In this document: positions 58,362 to 61,055 of the stretch, in pieces | Layout of the letters: each line of letters begins with the position of its first letter | Position numbering within the stretch: the stretch's first letter is position 1 | Assembly: GCF_046105845.1 (NCBI RefSeq) | Contig: NZ_CP151004.1 | Length of the DNA: 64,000 nt | Strand: one strand, 5' to 3' | From: Escherichia coli | Lineage (GTDB): Bacteria; Pseudomonadota; Gammaproteobacteria; Enterobacterales; Enterobacteriaceae | Program-made: the position numbers and the translations under genes | Notes under the pieces: model-generated | What the model was told of the DNA's origin: nothing | Seen by the model: only the letters and a program-made list of their open reading frames with translations | The model's database searches: none

Positions 58362-59000
58362 ATGCCCGGGCGCTTTGAACTAAAACCAACCCTGGAGAAA
58401 GTCTGGCACGCGCCGGACAATTTTCTCTTCATGGACCCGCTGCCGCCGATGCATCGTCGGGGGATCATTATTGCCGCCATTGTATTGGTGGTCGGATTTC
58501 TGCTTCCATCTGATGATACGCCCAACGCGCCGGTGGTGACGCGTGAAGCGCAGTTAGATATTCAGTCGCAATCACAACCACCGACAGAAGAACAGCTGCG
58601 GGCGCAATTAGTCACGCCACAAAATGATCCTGATCAGGTGGCTCCGGTCGCTCCAGAACCAATACAGGAAGGCCAGCCAGAAGAGCAGCCGCACCCCCCC
58701 CAAACGCAACCATTCCAGCCAGATAGCGGAATTGATAATCAATGGCGCTCTTACCGTGTCGAACCCGGTAAAACGATGGCACAGCTGTTCCGCGACCACG
58801 GGCTGCCCGCTACCGATGTCTATGCAATGGCGCAGGTAGAAGGCGCGGGTAAGCCGCTGAGTAATTTGCAAAACGGGCAGATGGTGAAAATCCGCCAGAA
58901 CGCCAGCGGCGTGGTGACGGGCTTAACCATTGATACGGGGAATAATCAACAGGTCCTGTTTACCCGTCAGCCGGATGGCAGTTTTATTCGCGCGCGGTAG
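58362..59000 (+). CDS. ytfB: cell division protein YtfB (OapA/LysM-like C-terminus)
   Basis: 212-aa form from ATG 58362 with AGGAGGA RBS ([21 protein letters not shown]...), TM segment and Pro/Gln-rich linker. Confidence 0.85.
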
Positions 59001-59088
59001 ATGAAGGGTCAACCAGAAGCCAGCTAAGGAGCGTCTCTTTGATGACCTTACGTCTGGCTTCCAGTGCCTGGGGTGAAACCATACTGAT
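58984..59088 (-). pseudogene. ytfA: ytfA C-terminal fragment, separated from its N-terminal part by the IS insertion
   Basis: Minus-strand frame reads [38 protein letters not shown]; joins in frame to the N-terminal fragment at 60834-61055 if about 1745 bp are removed. Confidence 0.45.
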
Positions 59089-59100
59089 ATGTTGACATCC

Positions 59101-59122
59101 TCCACGCCCTGAAGGACGTGGA
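59101..59122. repeat. IS subterminal hairpin at the tnpB-proximal end
   Basis: tccacg-CCCTGAAGGA-cgtgga; partner hairpin ccccg-CCCTGAAGGA-cgggg at 60804-60823 with identical loop on the same strand. Confidence 0.6.
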
Positions 59123-59134
59123 TCCCTGCTACGT

Positions 59135-60343
59135 TCAGGCTGTCGCCTGAATCATTTCGGTGGGTTCCTGCTTCAACGAGCGGCCTGACTGCACCATCTC
59201 TCCACAGGCAAGAACGGCGTGCCCCGCCGCTAAAATGTTACGAGCGCCGTTTACATCGGCGTTCGCTGTATATCCACATGCCTGGCATCTGAATTGACTT
59301 TGTGACAGGCGATTTTCTTTCGCTGTATGACCACAGCACGCGCAACGCTGGCTTGTGTACGCTGGCGGAACAGCAAGCACCTGACCGCCACGCCAGAGCT
59401 GCTTGTACTCAAGCTGGCGGCGCATTTCATACCAGCCCTGATCCTGTATCGAACGGTTTAAACCTGATTTTGCCCGGACATTGCGCCCCGGCTGGCTGAC
59501 CGTACCCGCTGCTGACTTTGACATGTTGCTGACCTTCAAATCCTCAATGACTATCATTGCGTGGTTTTTGCTGACGGTCGTTGTGACTTTGTGAAGGTAG
59601 TCCCTGCGGATATTTGCGATACAGGAATGCAGTCGCTGTATTTTGCGTTTCTGCTTCTGCCAGTTGTTGCTGAATTTGACCTTGCGGCTTAACTGTCGCT
59701 GAAGTCTCGCCAGCGTCTTCTGGTTTTTCTGAAAACTGTTTACAGGCCCAAAGACTGTGCCATCTGACAGCGTGGCGAGTTTAGCCACGCCAGCATCCAG
59801 CCCGACCATTGATGCTGAAGGGTGAACCGGAGTTGATACTTCATTTTCAGTCTGAATACTGATGTACCACTTACCGCAGGACTGGCTGACAGTGACATTT
59901 TTCACAACACCCGTGACCTGACGGCTATTCCGGTAGCGCATACAGCCAAGTTTCGGCAGAAAAATACGGCTGTTTTCCTGATCGAGCTTAACGCCCTGCG
60001 GGTAGCGGAATGCATCATTCTGTCCCCGCTTTTTGAATCGGGGAAAAGCAGCCCGCTTCTGGAAGAAGTTTTTGTAAGCCCGCTCAAGGTCTTTCAGTGA
60101 CTGTTGCAATGGCTGTGACGGGGCATCTTTAAGCCATTGCGTTTCAGTGGCATTTTTCCACTCAACCAGCCAGGAAGCCATTTTCCCGTAAGGGATGTAT
60201 TTATTACCGGCCTCATGATTCTCATTCTGAAGCGCCAGAGCACGATTGAAAACGAAACGACATGCGCCTGCGAAGCGCCTCATTTCACACTCCTGTTGAC
60301 CACCTGGTCTTAACTGGAATTTAAATGCCTGTAATCGTTTCAC
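59135..60343 (-). CDS. tnpB: TnpB (IS605 OrfB family; RuvC-like RNA-guided endonuclease family)
   Basis: 402-aa intact ORF with C-terminal zinc ribbon ([37 protein letters not shown]) and RuvC-like motifs; GTG start at 60341-60343. Confidence 0.9.
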
Positions 60344-60350
60344 AGGTCAA

Positions 60351-60782
60351 ATGATACTTTGGTCTATGAAAAAAGAAACCGATATCCGGCGTGGAAAGCA
60401 TTGTGTTTTCCTGATGCATGTTCACCTGGTCTTTGTCACCAAATACCGACGCCAGATTTTTGACCATGACGCGAAAGAAAAACTACGCACTTACTTTTCA
60501 AAGGTATGTGCTGATTTTGAAGCTGAACTGGTTGAAATGGATGGCGAACCAGATCACGTCCATTTGTTAATTAACTATCCTCCCAAACTGGCGATATCCA
60601 GTCTGGTAAACAGCCTCAAAGGCGTATCGAGTAGGTGACTGCGACGAGATCGACCAGATATTGCAGTCAGGTATTACTACAAAGGCGTTTTGTGGAGTCC
60701 TGGCTATTTTGCCAGTAGCTGCGGAGGTGCGCCAATATCCGCCATCCGTCAATACATTGAACAACAGCAAACACCTGGTTAG
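60351..60782 (+). pseudogene. tnpA: IS200-type Y1 (HUH) transposase TnpA interrupted by an in-frame TGA at 60636-60638
   Basis: N-terminal part has the HUH motif (PDHVHLLINYPPKL); the same frame continues after TGA as LRRDRPDIAVRYYYKGVLWSPGYFASSCGGAPISAIRQYIEQQQTPG, carrying the expected C-terminal catalytic Tyr region. Confidence 0.75.
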
Positions 60783-60803
60783 GTGGAAAACCGCGCCTTA
60801 TAT

Positions 60804-60823
60804 CCCCGCCCTGAAGGACGGGG
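60804..60823. repeat. IS subterminal hairpin at the tnpA-proximal end
   Basis: ccccg-CCCTGAAGGA-cgggg followed by TTTT; about 10 bp from the inferred IS end. Confidence 0.6.
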
Positions 60824-60833
60824 TTTTACGGCG

Positions 60834-61055
60834 CACTGGATAAACCAGGCCAAGCGTATGCTGGTTGATCAAATAATATCCCCCAAGCGCAGCAATATTA
60901 ATATTCACCTGCAATGGGTCGCTATCTGCCTTAAAAATATTGTGTTTCTTCCCTTCATCCAATAATTCCATTAAATGCAAGTGCGCATGATTAATTTCTA
61001 AGAGACGCTGTGATTTTGCATAATGCACACCTTTACTTTGGTTTTCACTATGCAC
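60834..61055 (-). pseudogene. ytfA: ytfA N-terminal fragment, truncated by the IS insertion
   Basis: [42 protein letters not shown]... runs into the IS end, where 12 IS-derived codons and a stop follow. Confidence 0.55.

Follow-up and report, generated by a model that had tools for sequence, protein, structure and literature searches.

It is very likely that IS609 inserted scarlessly, 3' of a TTTAT motif, into a ytfA gene that was by then already a truncated remnant of a TetR/AcrR regulator. In the window, meaning the whole 64,000-nucleotide stretch of Escherichia coli DNA analyzed here, the insert is 1748 bp long and aligns without gaps (1748/1748) and with 97.65% identity to the IS609 of K-12 MG1655 (1503161-1504908). 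Its boundaries were set from IS-free alleles and seven other IS609 copies, with 59091-60838 being equally consistent given a 1-nt C ambiguity. The features of the locus are as follows.

58362-59000, plus strand: intact ytfB, encoding the 212-aa cell division protein YtfB and convergent with ytfA; from the ORF list, Pfam and RefSeq annotation
58984-59000: convergent 3'-end overlap of ytfA and ytfB, 17 bp
58984-59091, minus strand: ytfA 3' fragment, consisting of His181 (CAT), ISMV...ARE and TAA; matches residues 181-215 of the complete TetR regulator
59092-60839, minus strand: IS609 (IS200/IS605 family), left end at 60839 and right end at 59092; its top strand is the minus strand of the window
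60840-60844, minus strand: target or transposon-adjacent motif 5'-TTTAT-3', directly 5' of the IS609 left end; with the adjoining flank, TTTAT+CATATCAGTATGGTTTCACC
60840-61130, minus strand: ytfA 5' fragment, matching residues 83-180 of the complete TetR regulator and including the start of TetR_C_29; from alignment
61131-62270, plus strand: yjfZ segment (DUF2686 gene at 61406-62200), standing where other E. coli have the TetR N-terminus and a gene cluster of ~10 kb; the right limit (~62270) is approximate, inferred from the rplI start at 62271

The split reading frame and the insertion site

As originally predicted, ytfA is interrupted by an insertion sequence, and both of the frames described exist (58984-59088 on the minus strand being open) and rejoin in frame, forming one interrupted minus-strand reading frame (60840-61130 plus 58984-59091). 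This split frame is not due to chance, because the joined frame agrees residue for residue with IS-free alleles in alignment and, with the IS removed, matches the C-terminal ligand-binding/dimerisation domain TetR_C_29 across the junction from end to end (positions 1-118 of 119, E 3e-26), a domain which the IS splits in the actual sequence of the window.

E. coli AF40, whose IS-free allele belongs to the haplotype of the window (98.6% over 1 kb), reads GGTTTAT/CATATCAG, which is exactly the two flanks of the window abutted, and the empty site of K-12 reads GGTTTAT/CACATCAG. The insertion left no scar and duplicated no target sequence, with TTTAT directly 5' of it. The junction is ...GLVY-H-ISMV..., with a single native His codon (CAT), whereas the join first proposed, ...VYPV-ISMV..., was off by 3 nt, with 'PV' (CCA GTG) being the first codons of the IS and all IS-free alleles having H in that place. 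The insert size had been given as 2 mod 3, which holds, and as 1745 bp, which does not; the corresponding boundaries (59089-60833) were ruled out by comparison with K-12, AF40 and the seven other IS609 copies. The 85-aa ORF running into the element (60798-61055, minus strand, beginning VHSENQ) was expected to end in 12 IS-derived codons, but carries 13 such sense codons and a stop.

ytfA as a remnant of a TetR/AcrR regulator

In alignment, the ytfA frame corresponds to residues 83-215 (133 codons) of a 215-aa TetR/AcrR regulator, the full-length homologue of which comprises TetR_N and TetR_C_29. A Pfam search of the reconstructed frame found no TetR_N (the N-terminal helix-turn-helix), with TetR_C_29 as the only match. 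Homology to the intact gene ends at 61130/61131, where BLAST coverage breaks at nt 792 of one query and nt 246 of another, and the sequence upstream of 61130 is unrelated to the regulator and closed by a stop.

The full-length regulator WP_001317442.1 of E. coli 2012EL-2448 is orthologous, being gapless over residues 83-215 save for one codon, and its gene overlaps ytfB in the same way as ytfA does here. It possesses the TetR_N domain that the remnant lacks, however, and faces a cluster of ~10 kb (ketoacyl reductase, sugar-phosphate isomerase, enoyl-CoA hydratase, CoA-transferase, FAD oxidoreductase, and TRAP transporter) that is absent from the window. The K-12 annotation lists ytfA (b4205) as a pseudogene of 402 bp, in which the DNA-binding domain is likewise missing. 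The locus, the truncation at codon 83, the overlap with ytfB (17 bp) and the 133 TetR_C_29 codons are all as in the window, but K-12 has no IS, carries CAC where the window has CAT next to the insertion, and includes an extra Ser codon (LMESLL vs LMELL). On the ytfA-yjfZ side (60839-61326 of the window), DNA identity to K-12 is 93.3%. The helix-turn-helix domain and the neighboring ~10 kb catabolic cluster have been replaced by yjfZ, both in K-12 and here. Because the helix-turn-helix domain was already gone, the IS would have struck an existing pseudogene.

The original prediction also placed the reconstructed ytfA stop inside the 3' end of ytfB, and this is the case, with TAA at 58984-58986 and the TAG of ytfB, whose product carries OapA_N and LysM_OapA domains (Pfam), at 58998-59000. 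The same 17-bp overlap is annotated in K-12 (4428079-4428095) and in the strain with the intact 215-aa gene; it is a native feature of the 3' end of the intact regulator gene and is unrelated to the IS. In a scan of 58800-61450, five promoter-like sites were counted (3.8 ± 2.1 in shuffles) and seven terminator-like sites (2.9 ± 1.9 in shuffles), neither count departing from the shuffled sequences by more than about two standard deviations, and no convincing terminator was found between ytfB and the IS.

The IS609 copy

Within the element and across its right end, the following features were found.

60804-60823, minus strand: left-end subterminal hairpin, CCCCGTCCTTCAGGGCGGGG; DNA fold z = -3.9
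60351-60782, plus strand: tnpA (Y1 HUH transposase, 143 codons), with an in-frame TGA at codon 96 (60636-60638, TTA>TGA)
59135-60343, minus strand: tnpB/insQ (402 aa), an intact gene for a predicted RNA-guided endonuclease
59101-59122, minus strand: right-end subterminal hairpin, TCCACGTCCTTCAGGGCGTGGA, then the end sequence GGATGTCAA; DNA fold z = -3.3
59076-59262, minus strand: putative omega-RNA region, with a scaffold at ~59092-59262 (tnpB 3' end and right end) and a guide from the ytfA flank

Both end hairpins have G+C-rich stems of 8-9 bp with a common core, CGTCCTTCAGGGCG, in place of terminal inverted repeats. The right-end motif TCCACGTCCTTCAGGGCGTGGA is unique in the window, and the right end ..GGAGGATGTCAA is kept in all eight of the eight copies examined. 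At seven independent chromosomal IS609 sites the target is TTTAT (five) or CTTAT (two), i.e. YTTAT, and TTTAT occurs once on the minus strand of the 399-nt ytfA remnant. Since GC skew is negative on the plus strand of the window, the top strand of IS609 (minus) lies on the lagging-strand template, which is the expected orientation for the IS200/IS605 family.

IS609 resembles IS608 (H. pylori), ISDra2 (D. radiodurans) and the ISGst elements in encoding a Y1 HUH TnpA together with TnpB, in its subterminal hairpins, and in being inserted 3' to a short motif rich in A+T, with the donor joint scarless and the target not duplicated. It differs from these studied systems in that tnpA and tnpB are divergent, a layout also seen in IS605, and in that TnpA of the window copy is cut short. 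The TTTAT of IS609 is also the transposon-adjacent motif of ISGst2 TnpB (bioRxiv 10.1101/2023.03.14.532601). The K-12 copy, at the ydcL-ydcO locus (insQ b1432; yncK, a tnpA pseudogene), has the same length, TTTAT target, ends and TGA at tnpA codon 96, but sits at another chromosomal site, where another flank would act as guide, and has 41 substitutions; its tnpA stop codon is additionally changed to Gln, unlike that of the window copy.

The TGA at codon 96 removes the C-terminal part of TnpA with the YxxxQ motif. When this codon is read as Leu, tnpA matches Pfam Y1_Tnp over 121/121 positions (E 2e-43), and strain WP4-S18-ESBL-07 has TTA at codon 96 of its orthologous copy. Full-length TnpA is probably not made from the window copy, and with tnpA knocked out by this stop the copy is probably immobile by itself. 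Less probably, the stop, in the context TGA-C, could be a leaky one that throttles the transposase without killing it. The TGA allele occurs in 2725 genomes, at no fewer than four loci, and in ~35% of IS609 copies.

Among orthologous ytfA-locus copies, pN/pS is ~0.3 for tnpB vs ~1 for tnpA. The tnpB product has HTH_OrfB_IS605, OrfB_IS605 and Cas12f1-like_TNB (the TNB zinc finger, E 1e-24) matches in Pfam, and can be aligned from end to end with ISDra2 TnpB (8BF8/8EXA; E 3.4e-52), including the catalytic D/E/D residues (GxDxG, xE(D/H)L, and (A/R)DxN; here xEDL and ADVN). Overall, tnpB looks to be under constraint.

By analogy with published TnpB biology (bioRxiv 10.1101/2023.03.14.532601), the right-end region of IS609 may act as an omega RNA, the guide of which would be CAUAUCAGUAUGGUUU, running from 59091 down to ~59076 in the flanking ytfA sequence. 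The region folds as RNA with z = -3.5. A search of Rfam gave no family at its gathering score; HgcC (full model) matched at 24.6 bits vs a threshold of 50 (E 0.009), RAGATH-18 at 29.5 vs 44.9, and sot0042 also fell below threshold.

It is conceivable, but quite unlikely, that selection keeps tnpB where IS609 no longer moves, that TnpB with its omega RNA cuts IS-free alleles reading TTTAT+CATATCAG..., and that the codon-96 TGA is leaky. If true, TnpB cutting of IS-free alleles would defend or spread the insertion, and the high carriage of IS609 among truncated alleles (78%) would be explained.

Distribution and history of the insertion

Among 5426 complete E. coli genomes, 3139 (58%) carry the full-length regulator allele, 1742 (~32%) the truncated allele with IS609, and 483 the truncated allele free of the IS, so that IS609 is present in 78% of truncated alleles (1742 vs 483). 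The complete E. coli genome closest to the window is 98.8% identical, and assembly GCA_018024015.1 contains an exact match of 6.6 kb. All of the IS-bearing alleles inspected begin at the same truncation point and adjoin yjfZ. The full-length rows inspected, a subset of the 3139 such genomes, showed no IS609 within the allele, and the order of truncation first and IS second rests on this sample of full-length alleles.

In the history we propose, the yjfZ segment would first have taken the place of the helix-turn-helix domain and of the catabolic/TRAP-transporter cluster (~10 kb), in the lineage from which both K-12 and this genome descend. IS609 would then have entered the remnant by single-strand 'peel-and-paste' insertion on the lagging-strand template, and the IS-bearing allele would have been inherited, and probably also moved by recombination, until it reached its present share of complete genomes.

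A different history has a modest chance of being correct, namely that the IS-bearing state is ancestral to all truncated (yjfZ-type) alleles and that K-12-like and AF40-like remnants arose through precise, TnpA-mediated excision. The prevalence of IS609 among truncated alleles would fit this, as would the abutted flanks of the AF40 empty site, excision of IS200/IS605 elements being scarless and restoring the original sequence (bioRxiv 10.1101/2023.03.14.532601). A scarless donor joint, however, looks the same as a site that was never occupied.

That there was no single ancient insertion, and that IS609 instead entered TTTAT repeatedly or was copied, through homologous repair triggered by TnpB, into alleles that had diverged, is unlikely. 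Among IS-bearing strains the 291-nt ytfA fragment next to the element diverges by as much as 7%, more than the IS itself (1-2.5%), the right-end flank occurs with both CAT and CAC, and the remnant offers a single TTTAT. However, the genome has a great many TTAT-type sites, making repeated entry at one of them improbable unless there is a targeting mechanism, and ordinary homologous recombination explains the mosaic of flanks equally well. The ytfA-locus copies also cluster together, six of them grouping in a neighbor-joining tree, albeit shallowly (18-40 differences within the group, 24-45 between groups). Because the flanks are more divergent than the IS and include both CAT and CAC, one ancient event is inseparable from recombination, gene conversion or repeated insertion at the sole TTTAT.

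Finally, it is highly improbable that ytfA constitutes a true small gene encoding ~108 aa, joined as ...VYPV-ISMV... and inactivated by the IS: whilst K-12 ytfA was formerly listed at 108 aa (PMC3614548; the model is now obsolete) and the joined frame is open from the GTG at 61055 and matches TetR_C_29, the product of that GTG covers only positions 26-118 of the 119 in TetR_C_29 and aligns to residues 109-215 of the 215-aa regulator, the frame upstream of it is still open and has no start codon, ytfA is a pseudogene or partial CDS in current K-12 and PGAP annotation, and IS-free alleles uniformly have H in place of PV. The originally predicted length of ~108 aa did match the old K-12 model, but only by coincidence, as the correct join gives 107 aa from this GTG, the allele here being without one Ser codon present in K-12. 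What had been regarded as an inactivated ~108-aa gene is the C-terminal 133-codon portion of the regulator. Against homologues, both junction and length differ, so that the reconstruction fails in detail whilst the IS-split frame stands.

Significance

The preferred reading, a scarless IS609 insertion into an already truncated remnant, describes an arrangement that is real but ordinary and that RefSeq already annotates in >1,700 complete genomes. Both ytfA fragments are already annotated there (PGAP) as partial TetR/AcrR; on NZ_AP022087, 108 bp matching the 3' fragment are labeled 'TetR/AcrR family, missing N-terminus', and the partial CDS ends at the position equivalent to 61130. Literature searches on IS609, on ytfA with ytfB, and on TnpB with InsQ found no paper on the insertion of IS609 in ytfA.

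The insertion matters little, with no working gene destroyed by IS609 and ytfB left untouched. The locus is nevertheless a clean, datable marker in E. coli with three states, namely an intact TetR gene accompanied by its cluster, the truncated remnant alone, and the remnant carrying IS609. It also offers a natural pair of filled and empty sites that fixes the ends of IS609 and its TTAT-type target, and may serve to test whether immobile IS copies maintain their TnpB.

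Locus Organization and the IS609 Insertion

The gene order in the window, fklB(-), ytfB(+), ytfA(-), yjfZ(+), rplI(-), is that of E. coli, with the following reading frames at ytfB and ytfA:

58362-59000, plus strand: ytfB, 212-aa ORF with its TAG stop at 58998-59000
58984-59088, minus strand: downstream frame of ytfA, its translation agreeing with the original prediction
59135-60343, minus strand: tnpB, 402-aa ORF between the ytfA pieces (Pfam OrfB_IS605, Cas12f1-like TNB, HTH_OrfB_IS605)
60351-60782, plus strand: tnpA, 143-codon frame with one in-frame TGA, also between the ytfA pieces (Pfam Y1_Tnp)
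60798-61055, minus strand: 85-aa ORF starting VHSENQ, which holds the upstream piece of ytfA

Within ytfB, an eight-C run (cacccccccc, 58690-58700) yields ...EQPHPPQTQ..., where the closest complete genome differs from the window at three positions; the identical YtfB protein was found in only 17 contigs of the public collection.

The proposal that ytfA is split by an insertion sequence was borne out, with both frames present as described and IS609, an IS200/IS605 element, between them. The element had been placed at 59089-60833 (1745 bp) but is 1748 bp long (59092-60839, top strand on the minus strand), and its ungapped alignment with the annotated mobile element "IS609" of K-12 MG1655 (1748 bp, 1503161-1504908) gave 97.65% identity. 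The argument that in-frame rejoining needs an insert of 2 mod 3 stands, as 1748 is also 2 mod 3. The predicted junction was 3 nt off, its "PV" (CCA GTG) corresponding to the opening six bases of IS609; natively, a single His codon stands there (CAT in the window, CAC in K-12), and the correct join, ...GLVY-H-ISMV..., gives 107 aa from GTG 61055 instead of the expected 108 aa.

The K-12 ytfA locus lacks the element, with the site sequence GGTTTAT followed by CACATCAG. E. coli AF40 (NZ_OZ547043.1) has the window's haplotype at this locus without the element (98.6% identity across 1-kb joined flanks), and its empty site, GGTTTAT followed by CATATCAG, is exactly the window's two flanks abutted, showing that the insertion was scarless and made no target duplication. 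Seven chromosomal IS609 copies, each at a locus of its own, share the start CC(A/G)GTG and the right end ..GGAGGATGTCAA, and the motif directly before the element is TTTAT in five and CTTAT in two. Subterminal hairpins with the common core CGTCCTTCAGGGCG occur at both ends. GC skew is negative on the window's plus strand, which places the IS609 top strand (minus) on the lagging-strand template, the orientation preferred by the IS200/IS605 family. These end, target and junction features are defining traits of IS200/IS605 elements. They also agree with peel-and-paste transposition as published, in which the donor joint is left scarless (bioRxiv 10.1101/2023.03.14.532601).

A relative of IS609 with 94% identity and an apparently intact 138-aa tnpA was observed on plasmid pIso00270_02 (NZ_CP095127.1, 77759-79633). 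Its left flank ends in ...TTTTTTACC, not TTAT; a different target motif in this variant or a boundary call shifted at this site could account for the difference.

ytfA as a Truncated Regulator

The reconstructed ytfA frame has 149 open codons, with no start codon upstream of GTG 61055, and matches only the C-terminal Pfam domain TetR_C_29. Many strains, such as 2012EL-2448 (NZ_CP027586.1), carry at the same locus a 215-aa TetR/AcrR regulator with both TetR_N and TetR_C_29. K-12 ytfA is now annotated as a 402-bp pseudogene, and PGAP calls both window-type fragments partial TetR/AcrR CDSs. ytfA is thus a truncated pseudogene, and IS609 probably landed in an already dead gene; the original prediction was right in outline but mistaken on two details, where the pieces join and what kind of gene ytfA is. 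Its overlap between the 3′ end of ytfA and convergent ytfB holds, the same 17-bp overlap being present in strains with the intact gene, including 2012EL-2448, and is the native architecture of that gene.

One Ser codon is absent from the remnant near 60903-60905 (an in-frame 3-nt deletion, LMELL), consistent with neutral decay; it is present in AF40, the full-length gene and K-12 (LMESLL), which is why K-12 ytfA has 108 aa. The former 108-aa YtfA model is confirmed by PMC3614548.

In strains of the 2012EL-2448 type, the TetR gene is divergent from a cluster of ∼10 Kbp extending to rplI, with products that include a 3-ketoacyl-ACP reductase, a sugar-phosphate isomerase/epimerase, an enoyl-CoA hydratase, a CoA-transferase, an FAD-dependent oxidoreductase and a TRAP transporter. 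In K-12 and the window, a ∼1.1 Kbp yjfZ (DUF2686) segment instead takes the place of everything upstream of TetR codon 83, the breakpoint within the TetR gene lying at 61130/61131 (window 61131-62270, against NZ_CP027586.1 2897009-2907569 as an example of the cluster). The rplI-ytfB interval shows a presence/absence polymorphism, 58% of the complete E. coli genomes having the cluster and TetR gene. In 2012EL-2448 itself, the TRAP large-permease gene (positions 5034-7112 of the NZ_CP027586.1 segment above) is split by an IS1A insertion.

Distribution and History of the Insertion

Among 5426 complete E. coli genomes, the full-length regulator was found in 3139 (58%), the truncated remnant beside yjfZ with IS609 at exactly the same site in 1742 (32%), and the IS-free remnant in 483 (9%). 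The insertion is widespread, as well as already annotated and in a known pseudogene. The truncation point was common to all IS-bearing alleles inspected, O157:H7 among them. Six IS609 copies from the ytfA locus, 18–40 substitutions apart, group together in a neighbor-joining tree, which fits an old insertion passed on mostly by vertical inheritance. IS-bearing strains diverge by up to 7% in the ytfA fragment beside the element, and a synonymous CAT/CAC SNP at the insertion point (59089-59091) occurs in both forms in IS-bearing and IS-free alleles; together these suggest that the locus has been shuffled by recombination, with repeated entry the less likely cause.

Fate of tnpA and tnpB

In the window, tnpA codon 96 (60636-60638) is TGA, followed by C, where other strains have TTA, and this removes the C-terminal part with the YxxxQ motif. 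Of the stop contexts in E. coli, UGA-C terminates most weakly. The same TGA is present in the K-12 IS609 at another locus (ydcL-ydcO), and among the copies compared it was seen at ytfA, ydcO, yfeD and a DUF3251 gene, four loci in all. By 32-nt exact-word search, the TGA allele was found at 3369 places in 2725 of the 5426 genomes; for TTA the figures were 6304 places and 3879 genomes. Trans-mobilization, gene conversion or leaky read-through could each have brought a transposase-null allele to four or more loci.

The window's tnpB is intact, and its product aligns over its full length with ISDra2 TnpB at E 3.4e-52, with conservation of the catalytic D/E/D residues. In 12 sampled IS609 copies, a small sample with non-independent pairs and possible gene conversion, 11 have an intact tnpB (pN/pS of about 0.3), whereas tnpA is broken in six (pN/pS of about 0.8–1.3). 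The contrast also holds in a small sample of orthologous, apparently immobile copies at the ytfA locus. This hints that selection may keep tnpB after tnpA has been lost.

The stretch from the 3′ end of tnpB through the right end of the element folds better than shuffled sequences, and its Rfam matches are sub-threshold only, to the TnpB-associated RNAs HgcC, RAGATH-18 and sot0042. On the model of IS200/IS605 systems already studied, a putative omega RNA (TnpB guide RNA) from the window copy would carry the guide CAUAUCAGUAUGGUUU.... Compared with the IS-free alleles, the transposon-adjacent motif (TAM) TTTAT plus this putative guide would match AF40 perfectly and K-12 with one mismatch, at position 3. 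If the guide is read from the right-end flank, the CAT/CAC SNP would lie at guide position 3, within the TAM-proximal part of the target.
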